Source: a virus
Direction: 5' to 3' (one strand)
DNA: 64,000 bases
Virus record (IMG/VR): IMGVR_UViG_3300022539_000610
Coordinates: 1-64,000 of that record
The notes under the pieces are model-generated. The model ran no database searches, had not been told where the DNA came from, and saw only the letters and a program-made list of their open reading frames with translations. The position numbers were made by a program, and so were the translations under genes. Below, one piece after another: positions 8,722-46,266 of the stretch. Position 1 is the stretch's first letter; every line of letters starts with the position of its first letter.

Positions 8722-9007
8722 TTGTAGACGACTCCTTGATAGCTTTCATGTATCCTCTTATTTGTTTAGATCCTGTAGAACCTTGTCTTTTAGGTTTAGA
8801 TTTAGTTTTGCTATCCTTTCTCCTTCTCTTCTTTAGCATCCTAATATTTAATTTAGTCTTTCCAAGCATCCGCCCCTTCACAATTAGAAAAAGAAACTCA
8901 TCGGATACACCATAGAAATTACCCGTACGTTTCCTCATTACAACCTTTTGTTCGAGTTCCTTTAAAACGTCTTCATCAATAACTAATTCAACTTTATACT
9001 CACTCAT
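8693..9007 (-). CDS. basic hypothetical protein
   Basis: RBS plus TATAAT motif. Confidence 0.6.
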   Translation of the reverse strand: MSEYKVELVIDEDVLKELEQKVVMRKRTGNFYGVSDEFLFLIVKGRMLGKTKLNIRMLKKRRRKDSKTKSKPKRQGSTGSKQIRGYMKAIKESSTNGRIKTQKS

Positions 9008-9022
9008 TTTTCCTCCCGTGTA

Positions 9023-9505
9023 TTATAGCGCCTTATCTCCCCAAAACGCATTATCTCCCTTGTATGTATTATAATGAATACATAACTCCTTTCTTACTTT
9101 CATTAAAATCTTTCCTAAATGATTCTGTCCTACACCATTACAAACACCCCAAAACTTATCACCCCACCAGTTACCCTCAATCAACTCGGTGTCTCCAGTG
9201 GCTAAAAGTTTATCTCTCAGGGTTTTCCGGCGAAACTTACTCCTAACTAAAGTCTCCATTACAGTAAGTTTGATCTCTTCCCAGTCAGGTCGAAGAAAGA
9301 TAACTCTTCCAGCCCGCTTTGCTTCACCAGGCGTAGATAGATCCCTTATGCGCTCTTTGTCAGGCTCATAACGAGCTTTCGCCGCTTGATATGCATGCTC
9401 CACAGAAGGGTATATTAGACCTTCAAAATAAAGGTTGACAGCGTAAAAGTTTGAAAGAAATTTATATCTCCCACTAAACTTACTTATCTCACTCTGCTCA
9501 CTCAT
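9023..9505 (-). CDS. NADAR (YbiA-like) family protein
   Basis: FLSNFY, SVEHAYQAAK, RPDWE, LLATGD..LIEGN.WGD.FWG, N.LGKILM.VR. Confidence 0.92.
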   Translation of the reverse strand: MSEQSEISKFSGRYKFLSNFYAVNLYFEGLIYPSVEHAYQAAKARYEPDKERIRDLSTPGEAKRAGRVIFLRPDWEEIKLTVMETLVRSKFRRKTLRDKLLATGDTELIEGNWWGDKFWGVCNGVGQNHLGKILMKVRKELCIHYNTYKGDNAFWGDKAL

Positions 9506-9707
9506 TTTTCTCCTCCTTGTTGTTTTTATAATGCTTAAACAATTTGCATGTTTTTTCATTCAAATCTTTATCACGTTGCCAGTCTACTCGTTTGCGTTCC
9601 TTAAACTTATACTTCTTCTTTCGACAGTCTGGCTTTAATCCATTTCTTGTGATTATTATTCCTATAAATTCACAAATAGCACATTTATTATCCGTCTGCT
9701 TATTCAT
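9498..9707 (-). CDS. small Cys-containing hypothetical protein
   Basis: RBS GGGAGGAG; CxxC. Confidence 0.55.
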   Translation of the reverse strand: MNKQTDNKCAICEFIGIIITRNGLKPDCRKKKYKFKERKRVDWQRDKDLNEKTCKLFKHYKNNKEEKNE

Positions 9708-9720
9708 TTCTCTCCTCCCT

Positions 9721-9786
9721 ATACAAAGTATACCTTAACAAGAGATCTCTTAAGTAAGACGGTGTTTTACTAATCTGACGGGGTTT
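9721..9786 (+). repeat. dispersed ~65-bp repeat, copy A
   Basis: gagatctcttaagtaagacggtgttttactaatctgac core shared with 38455-38524 and, inverted, 25601-25670. Confidence 0.85.
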
Positions 9787-9873
9787 CAATGAGTTAATCT
9801 CTGCCTCAATTTCTCTTGGCCGCAGTCACGATACAATTTTTTGGATATACCACCCTTTCATTGAACATTGTTG

Positions 9874-10125
9874 TCACCACCCACCACTATCTAAATAACA
9901 ACCATGAGTATTTACAGGTTCGCCTTGATTACCATCCGCTCTATATTGAACATCACACACAGCTCCAAGTTCAAAAATTTGTTTTAGTTCATCAGCATCA
10001 TAAGCTAATAGATTGCCATCCATACCCACAAAACCAAGCCTTGCCTTTTTACAAATAGAAAATACACTTGATAGCTTTGTCAACGCTTTTGTTTGTTCCT
10101 TATTCATAATATCTCCCTTCATCAA
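9874..10125 (-). CDS. hypothetical protein
   Basis: ATGA-coupled to the initiator gene. Confidence 0.6.
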   Translation of the reverse strand: MMKGDIMNKEQTKALTKLSSVFSICKKARLGFVGMDGNLLAYDADELKQIFELGAVCDVQYRADGNQGEPVNTHGCYLDSGGW

Positions 10126-11513
10126 TACTCAGGCTCCCGCACCATGGCCTGGTCATTTAAGTATGCAGGCAAGGTTTTGGTATATAATGTATCATTACTA
10201 AACCACCCAGGAGTCACACGAGTAAAATTTCCATTAACCTGATTTTCTATAGCATCAAACACATAATCCACAAACCGCAATGGATTCCTCTCATCAGGGC
10301 CGAAGAGAAGGTTACCACGGTGGATTTTCAAAAAGGCAACCATCTTTAACGACGCCCGTCTAAAGCAGACTTCATCATGTGAGGTAAACTGTCCTTTTAG
10401 ACCCCCAAGCACCTTCTTGCTAAAAATGCGTTTGAACTTTAACGTCATTTTGGGATAAGTATCAGGGATGGTATGAGCTTCAGAGATATACTTCCCAACT
10501 GGGTCTTTATCAGGCAGGCATTCATCAAACCAACTTTTAATCTTCGATACTTCTGTTTGCTTCTTCATCCTATCTCGGGTAAAGGAGGAGAAGCCAAAAA
10601 GTTCATCTAACCCTACTACATGTCCTGGGATGCCAAAGTGGATGGAGGTAGTAGGAGAAGACAATAATTCATAATACTGTCTAATAGAGCATTTAATATC
10701 CTCCAAAGAATGAGAAGTAAGGTGCTTTTGGATTTGCTTTATTGCCCGCATCATAATTTTCGAGTTGGGGTCGTTGTGCTGGGTGAATGGCTTACCAAAG
10801 CTATTCCATAAGCGAACTATATCTTTTACCTCATCACTGGCAGAGTCTAGTAAGGAAGGTATTGCTCTATTAGCCTTCAAAGTTTTTTGCTTGTAAGAGG
10901 GTTCTTCTATTGCCTTTTGTTTTCTTCTATGGAGACGGCCAGAACTGGAAGTTGGTGGGGAAGAAGGCTTTGCCTTTTTAAACTCATTTCTTAATGAGTT
11001 TAAAACATTTTTATTATTGCTATTACTATTCTTATGCCTTAGTCTTTTTATGACCCGATTTTCCCCAATTGGGTTTTCCCCATCTAGGCTTTTACCATTG
11101 AGGCTTTCCATGGTTTTTGAATTACTAGTAAACAACTCTAATCCACGCTTATCAAGTTCAGCTAAGGTATCATCGATTTGAAAAAGTCCTTGAACATCTG
11201 TATATGCCCAGAATGAACCAACTAATTTTTTACCTTCCTTGTTCCTGTAACGCATTCTTCGTAAATAGTCAACTTGTTCTAATTCTTTAAGTCCGGCGCG
11301 AATAGAATCTTCACATTCTTTCATCATTTTCTTTATAGCCGATACATGACTAATCCACCCATCATGATTAGAAAGAAGTAAACATAATAAAGCCTTTGCT
11401 TTACCTGTAATATCTGGATTACGAAGTAGCTGATTAGGAACTTGTGTAAATTCCTTTGATATAGAAGCATTGATTGCATCTGGTAGCCGTTTTAACAAAT
11501 TATTCTTAAACAT
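10122..11513 (-). CDS. phage replication initiator-like protein (N-terminal winged HTH)
   Basis: FTQVPNQLLRNPDITGKAKALLCLLLS..W...IRAGLKELEQVDYL, typical of phage replisome-organiser HTH domains; lies among replication genes. Confidence 0.7.
   Translation of the reverse strand: MFKNNLLKRLPDAINASISKEFTQVPNQLLRNPDITGKAKALLCLLLSNHDGWISHVSAIKKMMKECEDSIRAGLKELEQVDYLRRMRYRNKEGKKLVGSFWAYTDVQGLFQIDDTLAELDKRGLELFTSNSKTMESLNGKSLDGENPIGENRVIKRLRHKNSNSNNKNVLNSLRNEFKKAKPSSPPTSSSGRLHRRKQKAIEEPSYKQKTLKANRAIPSLLDSASDEVKDIVRLWNSFGKPFTQHNDPNSKIMMRAIKQIQKHLTSHSLEDIKCSIRQYYELLSSPTTSIHFGIPGHVVGLDELFGFSSFTRDRMKKQTEVSKIKSWFDECLPDKDPVGKYISEAHTIPDTYPKMTLKFKRIFSKKVLGGLKGQFTSHDEVCFRRASLKMVAFLKIHRGNLLFGPDERNPLRFVDYVFDAIENQVNGNFTRVTPGWFSNDTLYTKTLPAYLNDQAMVREPEY
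11056..11115. repeat. four degenerate 15-bp direct repeats (candidate iterons)
   Basis: cgattttccccaatt / gggttttccccatct / aggcttttaccattg / aggctttccatggtt, next to an AT-rich tract. Confidence 0.55.
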
Positions 11514-27178: not shown

Positions 27179-29914
27179 CTACCTCCTTCCTTTGTCTAAT
27201 AGTTTCTTTGCTCCCTTCTGAATCCTGATTGCCATTGTTGGCTGGAAAAGTTTTGTAAGTTTCTTTTTGCTCTCAGGATCAGCTACATCTGCAACTGACT
27301 TAACCCCTGCATCCCAAAGCTTCCGAGCTCTCTTTCCTCCAATGCCAGGGATGGATACAAGTTCCATCATGTGCTCTGGTATCCCATAAGCAATCCTGAT
27401 GGGGATAACTTTAAACAGGTCTTTCCTTCCCCACTTTGCATAATTATAGTCAATAAGGTTGATGGCTTCGGTGATTCGTTCAATATCGAACTTCAATCCC
27501 CTCATTCCGGCCTTAACTGATGGTGCAGTATTTTCTCCTTCACCTCTCAAACACTCATAGGCAGCAAGGGTAGAGACCACGGCATTTGATGACAATAGCC
27601 CCTTATTCTTAAGGTGCCATTGGAGTTCCTGGCATTCCTTTTGTACATCTTTTGGAATATAACCCATGTCATTTGTTGGGATATCTGTCAAAGCCCATGC
27701 AAGTGCTAAGTCATCTTGTTCCAGTTTACCTTTAAACATTTGATTGTGATTGTTATACCAGGCATAGACGTCCCAAGGGCTGAAGTACAACCAACTCCCC
27801 ACTTTTCCTAAGCCAGTCAAGGTATAGATTCCACCCTTGTTAACAACCATCTCCATCCGCTCAAGATCGTCTAAAAGGCCCTGGGCATCCATAAGGTCCA
27901 ACTCATTATTTTGAACCTTTGCAAGACTACGTGAGTACCATGTAAGAAGAGACCTAGCATCTTTAATCACCCCATTATCAATCTCTGCCAAGACATGAAA
28001 TGCAAGGGTATGATGGTTATTGATCACTGAGGTGACTGAGCGTGGGTTCTTAATTCTTTCTTGCCAAATAGGTGTTGAGTTCTCAGGAATGACTAAATAT
28101 ACATCTCCGTGATCATCATAGCCGATTCTTCCAGCACGCCCCAGTTCTTGTACAATATCGAGTTCATCTACTTCATTAATACCCCTGTGGACTCCAACAA
28201 TAATAACATTCCTGGCTGGGAGGTTTCGACCATAAGCAGTGGTGCTGGTGGAGACCATAATCCTCAGGCCAGTCTCTCTGTTCATGAAGGAGTCTTCAAT
28301 CTCTTTTCGTTCTCTGAAGTCAAGGTCTGCATTGTGGAAATGAGCTTCCTGACCTGCGTTTTCAAACCTTTTGAGGAGGTCACGCCCAGTCCCTTTGTCA
28401 TGTACAAAGATGAGGAACTTCTCCTCCGGCTTGGACATAGCAATATCAACAGTCATAGAACGTTTTCGTTCCTGAGAAGCCCAATAGTCCTCCCTGCCCC
28501 AGGAGTTTCGAGTAGTAGGATACTCCATGTAGTGAATGTCTAACTTTACAGGTCTCCAGTGAGAGTTTATCACATCTGTTTTCTTTTTGTTTAATAAGGT
28601 GAGCCATCGTTGAAATTCCCCAACATTAGGCATTGTAGCGGAGAGGCACACAATCCTTGCTTTATCGTTGAGGGAGGAAAATCTCATTAAAGCACATTCT
28701 ATAATATCCCCACGTGAATCCAACGTTACGCAATGGGACTCGTCAACAATAACAAGCCCTACCCTTCCTAACCAATAGTATTTCTCAGTCAACATCTTTC
28801 TTGTAACTGAATCTAACAACTCCGATGTCATTATCACCACATCAGCAGTATTAGCCTCTCCCATCTGCCTGTCCCTCTCACGCTTGCTTGTGAGGGTATC
28901 ACCAGTGAGCATCAGAACTTTCTTATCAGAGAAAACCCCCTCTGTCCAGTCCATGAAGCGCTCAGTTGACAGGCTCTTAAGTGGTGACATGTATATAATT
29001 TTCTTACCCTCTTTTAAAATCTCAAACATGATAAGCTCAGCAGCAATAGTCTTCCCACTGGATGTGTTGGCTCCGACTACAACATTGGAGTCTTCAGCTC
29101 TGAAAGGAAACACAGCACTCTGAACCTTATTGAAATGAGAGAACTTATAAGGGTAATCGTTTGTTGAAATTAACTCCTCTGCTCCCTCCAGTACCAACCC
29201 CAAATTGCGTTCTGTCTGCGTCTCTCCAGACGGTTCCTCTGTTTGATCATTCGTTTCTGCAGTTTCTTCATTGGATGTTGTTCTTGGTCTTTCTTCATTT
29301 TTTCTATTTTTTTCATTCCTTTCCTCCTCTCTTTCTCCCCATGTAAGATAGTGGTCTTGAAGGTCTGGTAATTGCTTTTTTACCATCGCCTCAAAAGTTG
29401 CCCTGCCTTTAGGATTCATCTCTCCTAGTACATAGGCTAATTGCTTATCACTTAGGCTATCTCTCCGGCTGAGGTTATCCAGGAGAGACTGAGCAAATTC
29501 AGACCAGGAACAATTCTCAAGGATAAATCTTACATAGTTAAAATCTATAATCTCTTGAACTTTAGCAGATACAAGAAACTCTTCAATCCGCTCCTTAACC
29601 CGATCCTCGATGGTAGTAGCTTCCTCTACTCGGAGAATCTTTTTGCCTTTTCCTAGGGGTCTGTTATTTTTACTATCCCAGAAAACTACCCTGATCGCAT
29701 CTTTTCCTTTAGCTCGGGTTTTATTATAAAGGCTATCCACTGTGCTGTAAATGCGTACTCCTACTCCTTCCTTTTTTGTAGCAATCTGATAGATGATTTC
29801 AGTCCCATAAGTGTTCGCAATCTGCTCAAACTCCTCTGGGAGAATATCTTCAAATTGGTCTTTTGTTAAAGTTACAAATGACACTTTCTGCCTCCTTCCT
29901 TCCTTTTCTCTCAT
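27179..29914 (-). CDS. Ski2/Hel308-like DExH helicase with N-terminal extension and C-terminal HhH
   Basis: ANTSSGKT, SPLKSL, VDESH, LSATMPN, WRPVKL, STST..YGRNLPA, QELGRAGR.G.D, LVSIPGIGGKRARKL. Confidence 0.9.
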   Translation of the reverse strand: MREKEGRRQKVSFVTLTKDQFEDILPEEFEQIANTYGTEIIYQIATKKEGVGVRIYSTVDSLYNKTRAKGKDAIRVVFWDSKNNRPLGKGKKILRVEEATTIEDRVKERIEEFLVSAKVQEIIDFNYVRFILENCSWSEFAQSLLDNLSRRDSLSDKQLAYVLGEMNPKGRATFEAMVKKQLPDLQDHYLTWGEREEERNEKNRKNEERPRTTSNEETAETNDQTEEPSGETQTERNLGLVLEGAEELISTNDYPYKFSHFNKVQSAVFPFRAEDSNVVVGANTSSGKTIAAELIMFEILKEGKKIIYMSPLKSLSTERFMDWTEGVFSDKKVLMLTGDTLTSKRERDRQMGEANTADVVIMTSELLDSVTRKMLTEKYYWLGRVGLVIVDESHCVTLDSRGDIIECALMRFSSLNDKARIVCLSATMPNVGEFQRWLTLLNKKKTDVINSHWRPVKLDIHYMEYPTTRNSWGREDYWASQERKRSMTVDIAMSKPEEKFLIFVHDKGTGRDLLKRFENAGQEAHFHNADLDFRERKEIEDSFMNRETGLRIMVSTSTTAYGRNLPARNVIIVGVHRGINEVDELDIVQELGRAGRIGYDDHGDVYLVIPENSTPIWQERIKNPRSVTSVINNHHTLAFHVLAEIDNGVIKDARSLLTWYSRSLAKVQNNELDLMDAQGLLDDLERMEMVVNKGGIYTLTGLGKVGSWLYFSPWDVYAWYNNHNQMFKGKLEQDDLALAWALTDIPTNDMGYIPKDVQKECQELQWHLKNKGLLSSNAVVSTLAAYECLRGEGENTAPSVKAGMRGLKFDIERITEAINLIDYNYAKWGRKDLFKVIPIRIAYGIPEHMMELVSIPGIGGKRARKLWDAGVKSVADVADPESKKKLTKLFQPTMAIRIQKGAKKLLDKGRR

Positions 29915-38005: not shown

Positions 38006-38180
38006 TCCATTCTGTTTGGTTTTTTATTTCTTCTTCTACTCTTTTTGAGTATTCTTCCTCTGATTCATTATCATACCTATGAGGTGCGCCTGTATATGGA
38101 CTTAAAGCACCTCCTTCTACGATACCTTCTAACTCCTTTATCCTGGGAGTATCTAGAAAAGAAGTATCATTCTTTTTCAT
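37962..38180 (-). CDS. hypothetical protein
   Basis: Likely start MKKNDT, ATGA-coupled. Confidence 0.5.
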   Translation of the reverse strand: MKKNDTSFLDTPRIKELEGIVEGGALSPYTGAPHRYDNESEEEYSKRVEEEIKNQTEWSGRKNASSITKQNS

Positions 38181-38404
38181 TCGATCACTTTTTTGGGAAG
38201 ATTCACCAAAAACCACTTTCCATTTACCTCCCGTTCAACCTTCAGAATCACACTCCTCTTAATAGGGGTGTTCTGCCCATTCAGCCTCCTCACATGTAAC
38301 CACTTTCGCCCAGCAGAATATTCATCGATGTCTCCCACATCAACTATTCCAGCCTTGGTGTGTACTCGAAGATGTTTCCGAGCTATTTTCTCATCATTTT
38401 TCAT
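38177..38404 (-). CDS. hypothetical protein
   Basis: ORF with weak RBS. Confidence 0.5.
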   Translation of the reverse strand: MKNDEKIARKHLRVHTKAGIVDVGDIDEYSAGRKWLHVRRLNGQNTPIKRSVILKVEREVNGKWFLVNLPKKVIE

Positions 38405-38526: not shown

Positions 38527-39531
38527 TTAAATCTTTGACCAATACTCGTCAGGCATTTCTAAGGAAAGCTTAAGTGCCCCAACAGCACCTCCAAACTCAG
38601 GGTCCTGAGTGCACTCAACATTTCCACCTCCATAAGCCTCAAGGCCTTTTTCAACTGCCCGGTCTATGCCCCGGAGTCGTGAGCCCCCTCCAGCTATAAT
38701 GACATTATTACGTAGGTGCTCCTGAAAATCGGCATCAAATGAGCCTACCAGAGCCTGGACAGCTTTACAAATAGGATCGGTCATCTGGAGACAACAATCC
38801 TGCAAAAGTCCAGTAAGATCATAAGTTCCAGGTATTCCCTTCTCTGTTAACGTTACAATAACTTTTTCAGAAATTCCTACATAGCCATATTTCTCCTTGA
38901 GCCTTTGGATAATCTGAGGGGTTAACTGAACACCAGGATACAAGTTTAAAATAGCTTCGATAATTTTGCTGTCAAGGAAGTTCCCTGCAGTAGTGAGGGT
39001 AACTTGATCCCCCTCTTCTGGTAAGCTACCATGTATTCGACATGCATCCACTGTTCCTGCTCCCACATCAACCACCAGACACTCGTCAAACCTATCCATC
39101 CCATAGGCGACGGCAAAGGGCTCTGACACTATCAGAACCTTATCTACTAAGGAGCTACACAGGTCAACAAGAGCCTTTTTGTTATGTATACTTGCCTGAG
39201 CAGGTACTCCTATAGCAGCATAGATCTGGTCACCTTTCCTTTTGTCAGGAATAGCCTGGACAAGCATATCCCTTAAAATAAGGGTGGTTGCCTTGATAGA
39301 AGGTTCATCCTCCTTCATCACTCCATGCTCAAGGGGCCAGACCATGTTGAGAGCAAGCCGATTCTTTATTGCCTCCTGCCCCAGAAGGTAGTCTCCACCT
39401 TTAAGTCTTTTTCTTGATACTACATCCTTTGGGTATCCAATGCAACTCAGTGTTGTCAACCTTGCGCCTGTAGATGTTGCCAATGAAGTCCTGCTAGTCC
39501 CCAAGTCAAATCCGGTGTAAAAAATAGTCAT
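38527..39531 (-). CDS. MamK-like bacterial actin
   Basis: GFDLGTSRT, IGYPKDV, IGVPAQAS..NK, VSEPFAVAYG, VDVGAGTVD, DQVTL..AGN.LD, AGGGSR, LP.EYW are colinear with MamK rather than MreB/ParM (from recalled sequence). Confidence 0.85.
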   Translation of the reverse strand: MTIFYTGFDLGTSRTSLATSTGARLTTLSCIGYPKDVVSRKRLKGGDYLLGQEAIKNRLALNMVWPLEHGVMKEDEPSIKATTLILRDMLVQAIPDKRKGDQIYAAIGVPAQASIHNKKALVDLCSSLVDKVLIVSEPFAVAYGMDRFDECLVVDVGAGTVDACRIHGSLPEEGDQVTLTTAGNFLDSKIIEAILNLYPGVQLTPQIIQRLKEKYGYVGISEKVIVTLTEKGIPGTYDLTGLLQDCCLQMTDPICKAVQALVGSFDADFQEHLRNNVIIAGGGSRLRGIDRAVEKGLEAYGGGNVECTQDPEFGGAVGALKLSLEMPDEYWSKI

Positions 39532-39638: not shown

Positions 39639-40412
39639 TCATGCAATACTCGAACAGATACCAATACACTCAATTTCTTTTTCCTCTTTGCTGTCGTAAA
39701 AAGAGGACAATTCTTCACGTTCAATTCTTCCCCGAAATGCTTCTAGCGTTTCATCCTTAAAGAATGAAATGTCTTTACCTAAATATTGTCGCACTTCACG
39801 CTCTACACGCGCTCTGTCTGCATATACTTCTGGAAGTTTTTCATATAGAAGTTTCCAATGCTTCTTCCCTGCTCGAACACACCCACCGGAACAGTTGTTA
39901 TGTTTAAAGCCAAGTCTATACAATAGGGGTTCTTCTATCCCCACATTTCTTAAAAAGTCATTTATTTGTTCATTTGTTTTATTCTCTTGTATTAGGGGAA
40001 ATAAGAGTTCTGACTGTTTATCTTTTTTCATTGCCACCATTTGATAAACATCATCCAGTCTATTTGCTCTGTGGGTTTCACCAATTCCAATTCCAAAGAC
40101 TAAGGTGTCCCCATCTTTATAGAACCTCTGAAGCCTTTCTGCTTTTAGAATCCGTGAACAGAATGGCATACGATCGTTAGCTAAGGCATTATTATCATAA
40201 AACAACTCTTCTGGGCTTCTTCCATCTGAGTCTAAAGTTATCTTATGGTCAAAATAATTCTCTAAATCAGAGAGAAATCTATACAGATCAGGGTGTTCCC
40301 ATTTTGTATCGTTGAAATACAAAATGACATCTTCCTTCGGGTATTGTTTGAAAGTCCAATCAGCACACCATGCTGATGCCTTACCCCCGCTTATAGCTAC
40401 AATTACGCTCAT
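39639..40412 (-). CDS. PAPS-reductase/PP-loop family protein
   Basis: AISGGKAS, FNDTKWEHPDLYRFL, HNNCSGGCVRAG, C-terminal CxxxC. Confidence 0.75.
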   Translation of the reverse strand: MSVIVAISGGKASAWCADWTFKQYPKEDVILYFNDTKWEHPDLYRFLSDLENYFDHKITLDSDGRSPEELFYDNNALANDRMPFCSRILKAERLQRFYKDGDTLVFGIGIGETHRANRLDDVYQMVAMKKDKQSELLFPLIQENKTNEQINDFLRNVGIEEPLLYRLGFKHNNCSGGCVRAGKKHWKLLYEKLPEVYADRARVEREVRQYLGKDISFFKDETLEAFRGRIEREELSSFYDSKEEKEIECIGICSSIA

Positions 40413-40443
40413 CTTTCAGTGTCTTAACAAGTTTCTCACTTGA

Positions 40444-40638
40444 TTAATCCTTCGGAAGGAGCTCTCCAAATATTGTAGAACGAACACTTTGGAAAGCATC
40501 TATATAACATGCAGCCATAGTCATTAATTTTTCTTCTCCCCCATCTAATGCAATCTTCTTCTTGCTTCTCCAATGTTTGATACTCCTGTCAAGGTACTCC
40601 ATAATAGTTTCTTTGTCAAAAGGAATTGTGTTACTCAT
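40444..40638 (-). CDS. hypothetical protein
   Basis: Likely start MSNTIP; YIDAFQSVRS..FGELL. Confidence 0.55.
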   Translation of the reverse strand: MSNTIPFDKETIMEYLDRSIKHWRSKKKIALDGGEEKLMTMAACYIDAFQSVRSTIFGELLPKD

Positions 40639-40691
40639 TTTTACCGCCTCTCTAACAGGCGGTGGGTGTGGTGATGCCATTTTATTACTCC

Positions 40692-41177
40692 TTAAACATC
40701 CAGTAGGTTAACTAAAAGTTTACATGCCTCAATCTCATCCTTTACCCAAGTGTGAACAGTAGCCTGTACAAAAGGATGCTGGCATCGGAGATCATTCCTA
40801 TGATCTTCATGTATTCCAATTACCATTTTCGCAGGATCGTCAAAGTACCAAGCCAACTCATAGATTGTCCCAATGGATGGCTCTTCAGGTGAGTAAATGT
40901 TCATGTTTGCAAGAGCAATAGTTGACCTCCTCACATGCTGCCTATCCTTATGAGGAAGGAGCCCCCAGACCTTCTGATTAAGAGCAATACTTAACCCGTT
41001 CTTTGAAATTCGACCATTTGTCAACACTTTCTGGTTCCATGCACTCTGACATGGATCAATGATAGTTAGATGACTATTAAACTTAGGTTCGTAATTAAAA
41101 AACTCTCTCACTCGCTTTCTCCACCTGTATGTTTCAGGATTTGTTGAAATCTGACCTGCTAAGTATACTATATACAT
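40692..41177 (-). CDS. nucleoside 2-deoxyribosyltransferase-like protein
   Basis: VYLAGQI..WR..IIDP...D...SIGTIYELAW. Confidence 0.7.
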   Translation of the reverse strand: MYIVYLAGQISTNPETYRWRKRVREFFNYEPKFNSHLTIIDPCQSAWNQKVLTNGRISKNGLSIALNQKVWGLLPHKDRQHVRRSTIALANMNIYSPEEPSIGTIYELAWYFDDPAKMVIGIHEDHRNDLRCQHPFVQATVHTWVKDEIEACKLLVNLLDV

Positions 41178-41207: not shown

Positions 41208-41600
41208 TCAAACTTCCCTGATTCTTAAATTCTCCTCAATCAAAGCCTGAAAAATAGCTAGTTTCCCTTTATCGTCTACCCTTCCTATGGCTATGTTCAA
41301 AAGTTCACTTATGTTTTTTGAAAGACCTCCAAGCACCCCACCTTGTCGTATGGCATCTAATTCTTTTTGAAGCTGAGTGACTTTGGCTTTCAAAACCCTA
41401 TTCTTCTCAACTACTTTAAGGAACGAATCATATGGTACAGCCTTATGAAAGTAGATCCTCGGATCAGCCTTCAACTGCTTAAAATACTTTGGATTCGCCC
41501 CCGTACTGACAGACGTCTTGGGGTAGATACTAAGTAAAGTTTTAGCTGATATTCTTACCCGTACATTATAAGTATTAGGATTGTATATTGTTAAATACAT
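41208..41600 (-). CDS. hypothetical protein
   Basis: ORF with coiled coil. Confidence 0.55.
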   Translation of the reverse strand: MYLTIYNPNTYNVRVRISAKTLLSIYPKTSVSTGANPKYFKQLKADPRIYFHKAVPYDSFLKVVEKNRVLKAKVTQLQKELDAIRQGGVLGGLSKNISELLNIAIGRVDDKGKLAIFQALIEENLRIREV

Positions 41601-42007: not shown

Positions 42008-42745
42008 TTAAACTAATAAGGTTTTTTGTTTTTTCAAACTATCCCACATCTCATTTCCTTCCTGGGTACGAAAAGTAAGTTTGTTTGATTGAATAAAACG
42101 AGCCCTATCTACAATCTTACCAACAGGACGAGGTTTCTTAACTCCCAAAACACTGGCAAATTTCTCAGGGGTCACGATAATGTCTTTCCCTTCAATATAG
42201 TGAAACACATACTGAGGGTTGCTCTTATGTGCCTCATTAAACAACATAACTGAACGGTTGTAGTTTATCCAAATCTGCTCCAGGCATGTATAAGGATGAC
42301 CTTGTTTCCCTATCCACTGAATGTCTCTCTTCATCTTCCTTCGATAGAAAGATTGGATTATCTCAACAGGGTTTCTAAAAATTAAAACTATAGTGACTTT
42401 TTCCTTCGTATACTGTGAAAGCAAAGGGAGCCATGCCCATATACACAGAGAGTTAATAGGGGCCTTCCAGCCCCAGTTGGTAAAACAAGTTAGAGAGTTC
42501 TGAAGTTGAGCTTGCATTTCTTTCTTCACACTTGATGAAGGAGAGATGTCAGTGTGGTCAAATTTCAATCCATATCTATGCACACCACTGGAGCGAAGGA
42601 TCTTGTGAGAGATAGGTCTGTACTTCCTATTCTCACCCAGGAAGTCAATGGGAACACCTCCACTCATATCCACTCCACAATGGTGAAGGTATCGAGAAGC
42701 CAAAGATGTACCGCTTCCATGCATCCCGCAAAGGTAAAAAATCAT
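42008..42745 (-). CDS. sulfotransferase family protein
   Basis: GMHGSGTS PAPS-binding loop, WGWKAP, IFRNP..S; likely start MIFYLCG, 5 nt after the iscB stop. Confidence 0.85.
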   Translation of the reverse strand: MIFYLCGMHGSGTSLASRYLHHCGVDMSGGVPIDFLGENRKYRPISHKILRSSGVHRYGLKFDHTDISPSSSVKKEMQAQLQNSLTCFTNWGWKAPINSLCIWAWLPLLSQYTKEKVTIVLIFRNPVEIIQSFYRRKMKRDIQWIGKQGHPYTCLEQIWINYNRSVMLFNEAHKSNPQYVFHYIEGKDIIVTPEKFASVLGVKKPRPVGKIVDRARFIQSNKLTFRTQEGNEMWDSLKKQKTLLV

Positions 42746-42750
42746 TGCTT

Positions 42751-43932
42751 TTATACCCACACCAAAGTTCTGGAATGAAAAATCCAACTATCCAACTTTC
42801 CTACCACCCTATCAAAACCCCTTCCTGTAGAATCCTTTAAGCCGACAGAACTACCCCCATGCCATACTTCATAAATGCTATCAACTAATTTAATTAAATC
42901 CTTCGGTTGGTGAAAGTATCGTTGTTTTCTGATATTAATTCCATCTCTTCTCTGGATTTGCAATCGCCGATTATTCTTTCTTCTTTGGATTACACTGAAT
43001 GGTTTAGATCTAGTTTGCTTCGTTCCACTCGCTATAACGAAGGCATCATTTATATGTGACTTTTCCAAACCTAGATTCACTCTGTTTACTTTCGTTAAGT
43101 AGCCATACGTTCTTTCGATTTCGGGATACCATTTAGTGAATATACTTCTAATGATATTCATAAAAGAGGATTCTTTGTATTGTCTGGCCTTCTTCAACCT
43201 ATGTTCTAAATGTTGCTTATGCAACTTATCATGGCAACTCACATGAAGAAGGGCTCTGTTCTTGGGTCTATCTGTTCCCCCTTTACTTCTAGGTATGATA
43301 TGATGTAATTTCCATGGATCACTTTTCCTATATAGTTTACTACAGAGTTGACATCTACTTTTCTCTCTGGCTAAAACATACTCCTTTATGTTTTGGTATC
43401 CATACAAGTCCCCTTGCTGATACCCAGTGCCTTCGATGTCTGGATTTTCAAGTTTTTGGATATCAAAATTACCTAATTCAACAATTGTTTTAGATATAGG
43501 GAGAAAATCTTTTAACTTTTCTATGACTCTGAAATGGGTTCTAGTTCTCCTTTCTACTGAAGGGGGTAGCCAACCTTCTTTCCTTCTTCTATTGTTGAAT
43601 CTTGGTTCCCGATGTCTTAGTTTACCCCTACGATGCACTCGGTACATTCTACGATCGTCAAGTCGTCTTTTCGTATTACTGTCTACTCTCACCTCACCAC
43701 TAATTAGTTCTTCTTTCTTGGATACACAGGAAAAACCAATGTATTCATAGCCAGAGTCGATGCCGCAGGAAACATCCTGGGTATATTCCTTAGAATCATA
43801 AAGGAGCTGAATAGTGAAAGGTTTTCTCTTTACAACCTTTGCTTTGTCTTCTTTCAACAACAATCTGGCCACAACAGACCATGTTGGCATCAAAGGCTTT
43901 CCAGATTTTGATAAAACAAATACTTCTTTCAA
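42751..43932 (-). CDS. iscB: RNA-guided endonuclease IscB
   Basis: GKPLMPT (PLMP), GIDSG (RuvC-I), Arg-rich RRxRR helix, WLPPS, IVELG (RuvC-II), CxxC..HHIIPRSKGG..N..CHDKLH (HNH), SHINDA (RuvC-III); likely TTG start after GGAGG. Confidence 0.95.
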   Translation of the reverse strand: MKEVFVLSKSGKPLMPTWSVVARLLLKEDKAKVVKRKPFTIQLLYDSKEYTQDVSCGIDSGYEYIGFSCVSKKEELISGEVRVDSNTKRRLDDRRMYRVHRRGKLRHREPRFNNRRRKEGWLPPSVERRTRTHFRVIEKLKDFLPISKTIVELGNFDIQKLENPDIEGTGYQQGDLYGYQNIKEYVLAREKSRCQLCSKLYRKSDPWKLHHIIPRSKGGTDRPKNRALLHVSCHDKLHKQHLEHRLKKARQYKESSFMNIIRSIFTKWYPEIERTYGYLTKVNRVNLGLEKSHINDAFVIASGTKQTRSKPFSVIQRRKNNRRLQIQRRDGINIRKQRYFHQPKDLIKLVDSIYEVWHGGSSVGLKDSTGRGFDRVVGKLDSWIFHSRTLVWV

Positions 43933-43949
43933 ACTGTCCTCCAATTATA

Positions 43950-44490: not shown

Positions 44491-44574
44491 TGGTGGGTGA
44501 GAGAGGAATCGAACCTCTATGCTTTCGCAACGACTTTACAGGCCATGGGACTCACCACACTGTCCAACTCACCC
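44491..44574 (-). tRNA. tRNA-Tyr(GUA)
   Basis: GGGUGAG/CUCACCC acceptor, anticodon loop CUGUAAA, long variable arm, GGUUCGAUUCC, encoded CCA. Confidence 0.92.
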
Positions 44575-45399: not shown

Positions 45400-46266
45400 T
45401 CAAGTAAAATCTCTTAATTTTTCCCCTAATTCAATAGATGGGCGGACATCATCAATACCAAACCCTTTTCCATCTAAAATCCCTTGGTAAATCTCAGTGT
45501 GAAGATCCTTAAATGATCTATCAAGAGCAACTTTTTTTCCATCAATTATCATTTGACGAAAAGGTTGGAACCCCTCTGCACCATCTTCCTCGTTAATAGA
45601 GAGGAACAAATCTACTGCTGTCCTCTCTAATTGAAGGAGGCACTGGAGACTTCTATCTGTCCGTTTCTCAATACTAAATTCCTGCACAGGCCCAAACAAC
45701 CAGAGCAGTAAATCTAGAATGTGAGCTCCAATGTTCAATGCTAAACCTCCAGATTTCTTGATGTCCCCCTTCCAAGAAAAATCATACCATGGGCCACGAG
45801 GAGTAACATACTTCACAGTAACTAAACGAGGATAGAAATTATCTATTTGTCGCAATCTTTGTACATCTGGATGAAGCCGAAGTTGTAAAACTGAGTAAAC
45901 TCGTTGTCCAGTCTCCTGCTCCAACTGAGCTAAATAATCAAGATTCTCTGGGTTAATAGAAAGAGGCTTCTCACAGATCACATCACACCCCAGTTTCATA
46001 CCAAACCGACTGTGGGCCTCATGTAAGTAGTTAGGTGAGCAGACCGAAACATAATCGATCTGCTGTTTTGTACCCCTCAGTTTATTAACATATCTATCAA
46101 AAGCATCAAACTGAGTAAAGAAATTACATTTAGGAAAATAGCTATCAAGGATACCAACAGAGTCGTTAGGGTCAATAGCAGTAACTAACACGTTTCCTGT
46201 GTCCCGGATAGCCTTCATGTGTTTGGGCGCTATGAAACCGGCAGCTCCTATTAGAGCAAAATTCAT
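45400..46266 (-). CDS. Gfo/Idh/MocA oxidoreductase, WbpB/WlbA-like
   Basis: FALIGAAGFIAPKH..AI, DPNDSVGILDSYFP, SPNYLH, CEKP, LQLRLH, SWKGD..KSGG. Confidence 0.9.
   Translation of the reverse strand: MNFALIGAAGFIAPKHMKAIRDTGNVLVTAIDPNDSVGILDSYFPKCNFFTQFDAFDRYVNKLRGTKQQIDYVSVCSPNYLHEAHSRFGMKLGCDVICEKPLSINPENLDYLAQLEQETGQRVYSVLQLRLHPDVQRLRQIDNFYPRLVTVKYVTPRGPWYDFSWKGDIKKSGGLALNIGAHILDLLLWLFGPVQEFSIEKRTDRSLQCLLQLERTAVDLFLSINEEDGAEGFQPFRQMIIDGKKVALDRSFKDLHTEIYQGILDGKGFGIDDVRPSIELGEKLRDFT

Follow-up and report, generated by a model that had tools for sequence, protein, structure and literature searches.

Bbp ("big bacteria protein") is a MamK-like actin of giant or filamentous bacteria (Geelhoed et al. 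2023, Microbiol Spectr; PMC10580974). Its hosts are non-magnetotactic giant or filamentous members of the sulfur cycle, in which the protein forms a separate clade with MamK as the nearest solved structure reported; repeated horizontal transfer of bbp between Gammaproteobacteria and Desulfobacterota was inferred by the authors, and Bbp was proposed as a possible genetic basis of very large bacterial cells (PMC10580974). The word "phage" appears nowhere in that paper. Here, we describe a Bbp-type actin gene in a phage genome, the IMG/VR record IMGVR_UViG_3300022539_000610, which was assembled as one contig of 114,031 bp and labelled a virus record. The stretch analysed, called the window below, comprises its positions 1-64,000. 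The actin gene is accompanied by the genes for an adaptor-like partner and for a small phage-specific protein (Table 1), and a related partner gene lies upstream of Bbp genes in bacteria.

The cytoskeletons known from phages are the tubulins PhuZ and TubZ and actins of the Alp/ParM type, and no phage-encoded MamK- or Bbp-type actin was on record in the literature and collections searched. In the Corynebacterium prophage CGP3, the actin AlpC works with an adaptor, AlpA (PMC5539076). Another MamK-related actin, BeeR, forms three-stranded tubes in Verrucomicrobiota (PDB 8R2N; PMC11929497).

An intact actin gene of the MamK family

The actin gene is preceded by a strong ribosome-binding site, AAAGGAGG, 8-9 nt 5' of its ATG. 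The original prediction had described the product as a MamK-like actin, based on motifs colinear with MamK along its full length. IGYPKD, IGVPAQASIHNK, SEPFAVAYG, and DQVTLTTAGN were all found, whereas the motif given as LP..YW reads MPDEYW in the protein. The full-length likeness itself is far beyond chance: in phmmer searches of solved structures, residues 5-333 matched MamK (5LJW, 5JYG, and 5LJV) with E 5e-72, ahead of BeeR (3e-34) and MreB (1e-6). An AlphaFold model built from 33 relatives (predicted local distance difference test score, pLDDT, 83.6) had the MamK filament 5LJV as its top Foldseek match (template modelling score, TM, 0.85/0.87; 37% identity), followed by BeeR (E 4e-30) and then by MreB and eukaryotic actins; ParM was absent from the matches listed. 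All ATPase motifs are intact, including the phosphate-binding DLGTS, the Glu of SEPF and the Asp of VDVGAGT (the equivalents of Glu143 and Asp161 of MamK), and GGGS. With a fold nearest to MamK, full-length homology, and intact ATPase residues, the protein belongs to the MamK family, broadly defined.

Profile searches gave a consistent ranking. The NCBIfam model for MamK (NF040964) scored 354.2 bits (E 6e-106), below its cut-off of 400 bits; the BeeR model reached 177 bits against a cut-off of 530, and two MreB models 41 and 38 bits against cut-offs of 293 and 366, which places the protein outside MreB. Pfam returned only superfamily-level matches to MreB_Mbl (51 bits) and Actin, with ParM_N at E 0.085, and the PHROG family phrog_691 ("partition protein") matched weakly (27 bits, E 4e-6). 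Between the window and its sister phage, L103, the rates of nonsynonymous (dN) and synonymous (dS) substitution in the actin gene were 0.078 and ~1.9, respectively (dN/dS ~0.04). The actin gene is intact and under purifying selection, and very unlikely to be a passenger.

The phage actin groups with Bbp rather than with magnetosome MamK

In both trees that were calculated, the phage actin lies within the Bbp clade, with a support of 100 in the SH-like approximate likelihood ratio test (SH-aLRT), among proteins of Desulfonema, Beggiatoaceae, Thiomargarita, Thiothrix, Thiohalocapsa, Zetaproteobacteria, and Riflebacteria. In keeping with the original prediction, it grouped with neither MreB nor ParM. 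Among 1.84 billion cluster representatives (50% identity), one matched at 451 bits (60% identity) and all others at no more than 291 bits and 45% identity, a drop that puts the actin in a tight clade, well separated from other members of the family. In a collection of 5.8 billion proteins, the nearest relative (P0002) is 88% identical and the next best are 60-70% identical; the named relatives at this level come from Desulfonema limicola, D. magnum, Desulfococcaceae, Ca. Parabeggiatoa, Thiothrix, Ca. Electrothrix, and Thiotrichales. When one genome per species was scanned, further relatives at 56-66% identity came from Thioploca, Thiomargarita, Beggiatoa, Ca. Marithrix, Chromatiaceae, Zetaproteobacteria/Mariprofundus, and Riflebacteria. 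Below these Bbp-clade genomes, identity falls to 39-47% (Planctomycetota and others), and the closest sequenced cellular homolog of the phage actin is 66% identical. The taxa match those listed for Bbp (PMC10580974), and by its sequence the phage actin is of the Bbp type, an assignment that rests on the names of the organisms and not on the sequences of that paper. The Bbp proteins described there are encoded by bacteria with large cells, filaments, or clusters, whereas this gene lies on a virus record.

As a stand-in for true MamK we used P0136, which scored 463 bits to the MamK of the crystal structure and 508 bits on the MamK model, and which fell in a clade separate from that of the phage actin (support 97). 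On the same model, cellular Bbp proteins scored 389-399 bits and true MamK-type proteins 450-508, and the 354 bits of the phage actin were the lowest of the clade members scanned. One Desulfobacterales genome (G048) encodes both paralogs; identity to the phage actin is 64% for the Bbp of this genome and 37% for the MamK-type protein. An identity as magnetosome MamK was rejected, given the score of 354 bits against the 400-bit cut-off, the position in the Bbp clade, the identity of ~37%, and a neighbourhood without magnetosome genes. What had been called MamK-like is thus a MamK-family actin from the Bbp clade, not the magnetosome protein. The accompanying claim that no other mam genes are present was borne out for the neighbours and large open reading frames (ORFs), which are phage replication and structural genes; for small ORFs, the scan against magnetosome models was not exhaustive.

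Two further arrangements of the family were observed in passing. Many cluster representatives, including P0125, P0127, P0129, P0130, P0137, and P0138 are proteins of 700-1,230 amino acids (aa) with the MamK-family domain at their extreme C-terminus; over that domain, fusions of the P0125 type are ~40% identical to the phage actin. Genome G083 has a tandem pair of MamK-family genes (L172:7777-8862 and 8880-9962), which score 359 and 406 bits, respectively, with the model for MamK.

Cellular Bbp genes have a tail-bearing partner upstream

When the neighbours of the actin were clustered across 66 Bbp-clade loci, one recurrent neighbour emerged, an ORF of ~100-190 aa situated close upstream of the actin on the same strand. 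This partner has not been described before: it is defined in this analysis and is absent from the literature on Bbp. A hydrophobic helix at the N-terminus was seen in 31 of 47 partners; a coiled coil, a motif resembling AFMN, and a conserved C-terminal tail such as KLAMFKRIIEDNVKLR complete the cellular partners, which gave no matches to Pfam families.

The resemblance to an ORF of the phage was first seen by eye, and was then put to a blind test with a profile that drew on 28 tails, all of them cellular. Of the 634 ORFs in the six frames of the phage genome, this profile matched a single one (E 1.9e-5; next best 4.6), the partner ORF of Table 1. Searched against 8,756 ORFs of other loci, it gave 47 matches at E < 0.01, every one of them on the strand of the actin and just upstream of it. 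The position was scored as an ORF end within -60 to +500 nt of the actin start, which holds for 3% of ORFs as background. After one iteration of the profile, 56 of 56 matches were so placed, among them those in a second phage contig (L005), in three further Bbp loci, and in ten family members that are more distant. The tail of the L005 partner had E 3.8 with the unbiased profile and reached E 0.007 only after this iteration. The window thus shares with cellular Bbp loci a tail-bearing partner upstream of the actin on the same strand.

Some partners in Desulfobacterales are longer (~335-390 aa; L006:5137-6213, L009:4917-6095, and L088:1678-2685) and read as a receiver domain, a coiled coil, and the tail. 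The response-regulator receiver domain was confirmed in the L009 and L088 partners, and such domain architectures suggest two-component control of the filament system.

Adaptor genes are known directly upstream of mamK, namely mamJ and mg-1g50 (PMC10653835). L168 is a magnetosome cluster with MamM/B-, MamN-, and MamE/P-type neighbours and a mamK scoring 507 bits; the ORF directly upstream of this mamK was matched by the unbiased tail profile (E ~1e-3), and the ORF upstream of the MamK-type gene of L171 after iteration (E 0.003). Tail-like endings upstream of Desulfobacterales MamK-type genes read ILRMLVNENKQLRK, LLDLIVEENKELRK, and LLHAIVEENKLLAE in L168, L171, and L170, respectively. From these endings, the three upstream ORFs may be unrecognised MamK adaptors.

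The phage partner and a third, phage-specific gene

The partner of the phage contains no hydrophobic segment and hence no membrane anchor. Its relationship to the partner of L106, a metagenome contig with a related module, was recovered by hhalign over the coiled coil, motif, and tail (probability 96.4%, E 1e-9) and by BLASTP (E 4e-9) in a colinear context, in which the L106 partner abuts the actin. In all four phage-type partners, KGKLAIFQALIEENL in the tail is invariant. When the phage tail was aligned with the cellular tails, Asn124 and Arg128 were invariant as well and Lys113 nearly so, and a low-confidence model predicted a helix at residues 110-129. Among the 5.8 billion proteins, the phage partner has three close relatives only; one of them (P0286) and the 88%-identical actin P0002 are both on 9,873-bp contigs, a coincidence from which alone the two may be placed on a common contig. 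No Pfam family matched the phage partner, and its AlphaFold model (pLDDT 48, from 4 sequences) was too poor to use. A protein atlas returned only sub-threshold matches for the partner and the small protein (features < 0.9; partner TM < 0.5). Homology of the beta-rich N-terminal part between the window and L096 or L106 looked plausible by eye; it was not recovered by hhalign and is not claimed.

Directly downstream of the actin lies the small third gene. Homologs occupy the same place in the metagenome contigs L096, L106, and L119 (30-34% identity, E 1e-6 to 1e-10). In L103, one inserted gene stands between the actin and the homolog downstream of it, which is 78% identical. The gene is under purifying selection, with the proportion of differences being 0.15 at nonsynonymous sites (pN) and 0.90 at synonymous sites (pS). 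It matched no Pfam family and was not found in cellular Bbp loci. The gene inserted in L103 (849-1439, + strand) encodes a 196-aa protein with hydrophobic segments, and the small gene of L103 is followed by proteins that start with an MSRAR-type leader.

The three genes of L106 run into one another with overlapping ends (9513-9989, 9989-10993, and 10971-11243), and homologs of the window genes at 45400-46266 and 42008-42787 lie upstream of them. This contiguity and colinearity make the contiguous trio look ancestral. Three genes separate partner and actin in the window; they are probably insertions outside the module, because partner and actin of L106 overlap by one base. Likewise, the IscB-like gene of the window fits the insertion of a mobile element, because the genes that flank it adjoin each other in the colinear L106. 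It therefore looks as though the phage of the window later gained both an IscB-type element and the three genes between partner and actin. Among the latter, Pfam matched PAPS_reduct (E 3e-9), the family of 3'-phosphoadenosine-5'-phosphosulfate (PAPS) reductases, and Nuc_deoxyri_tr2 (weakly). The PAPS-reductase-like and deoxyribosyltransferase-like genes may serve nucleotide or DNA modification, and a weak PAPS-reductase-like match was also seen a few kb upstream of the module in L106. Promoter and terminator scans around the module gave no meaningful signals; the elements D1 and D2 are similar ribosome-binding regions only.

The module recurs in diverged phage-like contigs

The original prediction had placed the actin in a phage-like genome, and the contig is indeed viral by its label and its content. 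All long ORFs of the 114,031-bp contig are on a single strand, and beyond the window PHROG families matched a tail sheath (E 5e-70), a baseplate wedge, a head maturation protease, and a tail fibre; nothing pointed to a cellular contig. Inside the window are a DnaB-type helicase, a replication initiator, more helicases, and an HNH/RRXRR protein. No integrase or repressor was found among the proteins scanned, and the genome looks like that of a T4-type lytic myovirus. A marine sediment metagenome, perhaps the source sample, is the sole sequencing run that contains the phage DNA, and no RNA dataset was among the sequencing runs listed.

Searches with tblastn through 50,697 phage records of GenBank and through 72,556 plasmids gave no homolog of the actin, and the best match in a viral structure library was Gp506 of Bacillus phage G (TM ~0.6, 16% identity). 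In IMG/VR, a single-protein pattern scan found nothing, whereas an alignment-based scan found the contigs L004 and L005. Lying side by side, partner, actin, and small gene were seen in L106 and L096, partner and actin in L004, and actin and small gene in L119. The module contigs span a GC content of 31 to 48%, and backbone proteins are 33-48% identical to those of the window in L096, L106, and L119, with a backbone identity in the same range noted for L004. The large helicase of L004 is 39% identical to that of the window over 917 aa. Among module-carrying contigs, this phrog_6819 helicase has 39-48% identity and could mark the phage group.

In the tree of the clade, the window grouped with P0002 (support 100) and L096, L106, L004, and L119 with one another (99), both branching at its unresolved base. 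The phage actins fell outside the cellular group with a support of 98 in the first tree and 85 in the clade tree. When the six actins of phage modules were forced to be monophyletic, the log-likelihood rose by 4.16 (lnL +4.16), so that the constrained tree was slightly more likely and was not rejected by the approximately unbiased test (p-AU 0.62). A single phage lineage is therefore compatible with the data. L005 is a second, independent phage case, with an actin that is sister to a Verrucomicrobiota cluster; here the tail-bearing ORF and the actin lie between the genes for the major head protein and the large terminase.

Table 1. Positions of the features discussed, in the window unless a contig is named
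Feature	Position	Strand	Remarks
Bbp-type (MamK-family) actin-like ATPase	38527-39531	-	334 aa; ORF from ATG to stop
Adaptor-like partner	41208-41600	-	130 aa; beta-rich at the N-terminus, with a coiled coil, an ELLN motif, and a C-terminal helix that is conserved
C-terminal tail helix of the partner	41211-41273	-	residues 110-130, KGKLAIFQALIEENLRIREV; candidate filament-docking motif
Small protein	38177-38404	-	75 aa; next gene after the actin; third component of the module
Three intervening genes	39639-41177	-	257-aa PAPS-reductase-like, 78 aa, 161-aa nucleoside 2-deoxyribosyltransferase-like; between partner and actin
RRXRR + HNH protein, IscB-like	42751-43944	-	397 aa
Large helicase	27179-29914	-	phrog_6819 with phrog_28038 N-terminal part; counterparts L004:1240-3924 and L096:3567-6098
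tRNA-Tyr (GTA) gene	44491-44574	-	
L103			sister phage; actin 87% identical
L004			IMG/VR contig, 273.6 kb; partner and actin present, actin 60% identical
L096, L106, L119			metagenome contigs; actins 65-67% identical; phage-type replication and nucleotide-metabolism genes
L005 pair	L005:9098-11029		IMG/VR phage contig, 49.8 kb; MamK-family actin of another subclade, 45% identity
ORF 5' of MamK-type gene	L168:9382-9843	+	tail related to the Bbp-partner tail
ORF 5' of MamK-type gene	L171:7532-7978	-	tail related to the Bbp-partner tail
ORF 5' of MamK-type gene	L170:8132-8758	+	tail related to the Bbp-partner tail

A proposed phage-owned filament and its alternatives

The explanation that we favour, with moderate confidence, is that the phage would own a filament which, together with a soluble adaptor, positions phage cargo. 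A lineage of large marine-sediment myoviruses would have kept a functional Bbp-clade actin-like ATPase as its own cytoskeletal module of three genes. We infer that the actin polymerises and that the conserved amphipathic helix at the C-terminus of the adaptor docks on it. The N-terminal part of the adaptor would be a phage-specific soluble domain in place of the cellular membrane anchor, and the small phage-specific protein would be a third component. ATP-driven filaments, linked by the adaptor to a cargo such as replicating DNA, the site of replication or assembly, or capsids, would position or move that cargo in the host. The host is probably a large or filamentous sulfur-cycle bacterium with a Bbp of its own, in which diffusion would be limiting.

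The original prediction had suggested either a filament that positions phage DNA or capsids or one that disturbs a MamK-type system of the host; the cognate adaptor-like gene, and a three-gene module kept in related phage-like contigs, lend such functions indirect support. The architecture of the partners fits the arrangement with an adaptor. Across loci, the actin and the tail are constant, while the N-terminus varies between a membrane helix, a receiver domain, and a soluble part, as is expected if the tail contacts the actin. ParR with ParM and AlpA with AlpC are working precedents for a modular adaptor that docks by its tail. Since the module lies among replication genes in the window and between head and terminase genes in L005, replicating DNA and capsids are the obvious candidates for the cargo.

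Several observations weigh against this explanation. A repeat scan near the module found no iterated centromere-like repeats, which leaves DNA as a cargo without direct support. The N-terminal domain of the phage partner has no recognisable fold or family, and the partner lies 1,677 nt upstream of the actin, as opposed to at most 500 nt in 47 of 47 other loci. The equivalent of Ala278 of MamK is a Glu in the phage actin, and Glu or Asp in all aligned actins of the Bbp clade. A278D is the non-polymerising mutant used for MamK crystals; since the acidic residue also occurs in members above the MamK cut-off, at most the longitudinal contact would differ in detail. Finally, a comparison of 20 kb of phage DNA with five Bbp-bearing candidate genomes gave no spacer or prophage match as a sign of the host; the matches obtained were bbp itself (63-66%), one unrelated match of 63%, and a 38-nt low-complexity match over a hairpin.

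The closeness of the phage proteins to those of the presumed hosts allows for a different use. The phage actin could co-polymerise with, cap, or poison the Bbp filaments of the host, and the soluble adaptor could compete with the membrane-anchored partner of the host through the shared tail, detaching or redirecting host filaments. The tail of the phage is very close to the cellular one (KLAIFQALIEENL versus KLAIFQRLIDDNV in Parabeggiatoa-type partners), it is specifically the membrane anchor that is lost in the phage adaptor, and with 60-66% identity to cellular Bbp, mixed filaments are conceivable. Such a takeover of the host cytoskeleton nevertheless seems doubtful to us. The phages keep a complete set of actin, adaptor, and small protein, under purifying selection and stable across deeply diverged genomes, which is more in line with a self-sufficient machine than with a decoy; a decoy would need no more than an adaptor or a capping fragment. 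Moreover, the phage actins form basal groups of their own and do not track host lineages as a mimic would.

Alternatively, a system resembling ParMRC or AlpAC could maintain the phage genome as a plasmid-like or pseudolysogenic episome in dividing filaments, with the adaptor binding a phage centromere. The adaptor gene next to the actin gene recalls a type II-like layout, phrog_691 matched weakly as mentioned above (E 4e-6), and immediately beyond its small gene L103 has a gene for a 131-aa protein in which a ParB-like GRHR-type motif was seen by eye. We nonetheless regard partition as improbable: the centromere-type repeats that it calls for were lacking near the genes, the tblastn searches of plasmids and GenBank phages came back empty, ParM_N matched only at E 0.085, the genome has a T4-type lytic look without integrase or repressor among the proteins scanned, and the L005 pair sits in a late-gene packaging context. 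That the actin is an inert host gene, acquired accidentally and playing no part in the phage life cycle, is very hard to credit, even though phages of this size hold many host-derived genes, given the dN/dS (omega) of ~0.04, the cognate partner and phage-specific third gene conserved alongside, the recurrence of the module, in a colinear context, across several phage-like contigs that are only distantly related, and the just 66% identity of the closest sequenced cellular homolog.

If the reading of a phage-owned filament and adaptor is correct, phage cytoskeletons would gain an actin of the MamK/Bbp type and would be linked to host cell size. The hosts of Bbp are uncultured or hard to manipulate, and the phage version offers the system as three small genes that could be expressed in E. 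coli, together with a defined tail peptide of 20 residues as a candidate filament-docking element to examine. If the tail motif holds, it would nominate unrecognised interactors of MamK in magnetotactic Desulfobacterales and in many Planctomycetota. A phage that carries bbp would also provide a concrete path by which the gene could have been transferred horizontally, as has been inferred. Extending this further, phages of giant sulfur-cycle bacteria might carry a self-contained transport kit of three parts, the tail helix might be a docking motif throughout the MamK family, including the MamK of magnetosomes, and phages might be vehicles of the repeated spread of bbp between Gammaproteobacteria and Desulfobacterota or even the source of the cellular genes; we put this forward tentatively, as a possibility on the unlikely side.

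Comparison with known systems

With AlpC/AlpA and ParM/ParR, the phage module shares the pairing of an actin-like ATPase of a mobile element with an adaptor gene, and these systems serve as the working analogy of a filament and adaptor that move the cargo of the element itself. No sequence relationship could be detected beyond the actin fold, however; the adaptors are unrelated to each other, and the phage genes lacked centromere-like repeats nearby. The actin itself falls outside the ParM/Alp segregation actins, as judged from ParM_N, the 27 bits of phrog_691, the lack of repeats, and the lack of a plasmid homolog. BeeR resembles it as a MamK-related actin of non-magnetotactic bacteria and as the second-best structural match after MamK, but the two are 28% identical, the phage actin scores 177 bits where 530 are required, and it does without the disordered N-terminal extension of BeeR.

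MamK (PDB 5LJV, 5LJW, and 5JYG) is closer, with the same fold (TM 0.85-0.87), full-length colinearity, and equivalents of the catalytic Glu143 and Asp161; in addition, the ORF upstream of the mamK of L168, from a Desulfobacterales magnetosome cluster, ends in a tail related to that of the partners. It differs in sequence (~37% identity, below the NCBIfam cut-off), in clade, in the absence of magnetosome genes near the phage gene, and in the change of Ala278 to Glu in the phage.

The closest system is Bbp. Both versions share the clade (SH-aLRT 100), a length of 334-338 aa, the ATPase motifs, and a tail-bearing partner, and the phage actin is 60-66% identical to the proteins of Desulfonema, Beggiatoaceae, Thiomargarita, and Thiothrix. 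In contrast to these, the phage version is encoded by a virus and lies outside the cellular crown, its partner has a phage-specific N-terminal part and no membrane anchor, and an extra small gene follows the actin, whose 354 bits on the MamK model compare with 389-392 for the clade members scanned. The actin is thus better filed under Bbp, and the conserved tail-bearing partner, shared by phages and bacteria, is the most useful new lead.

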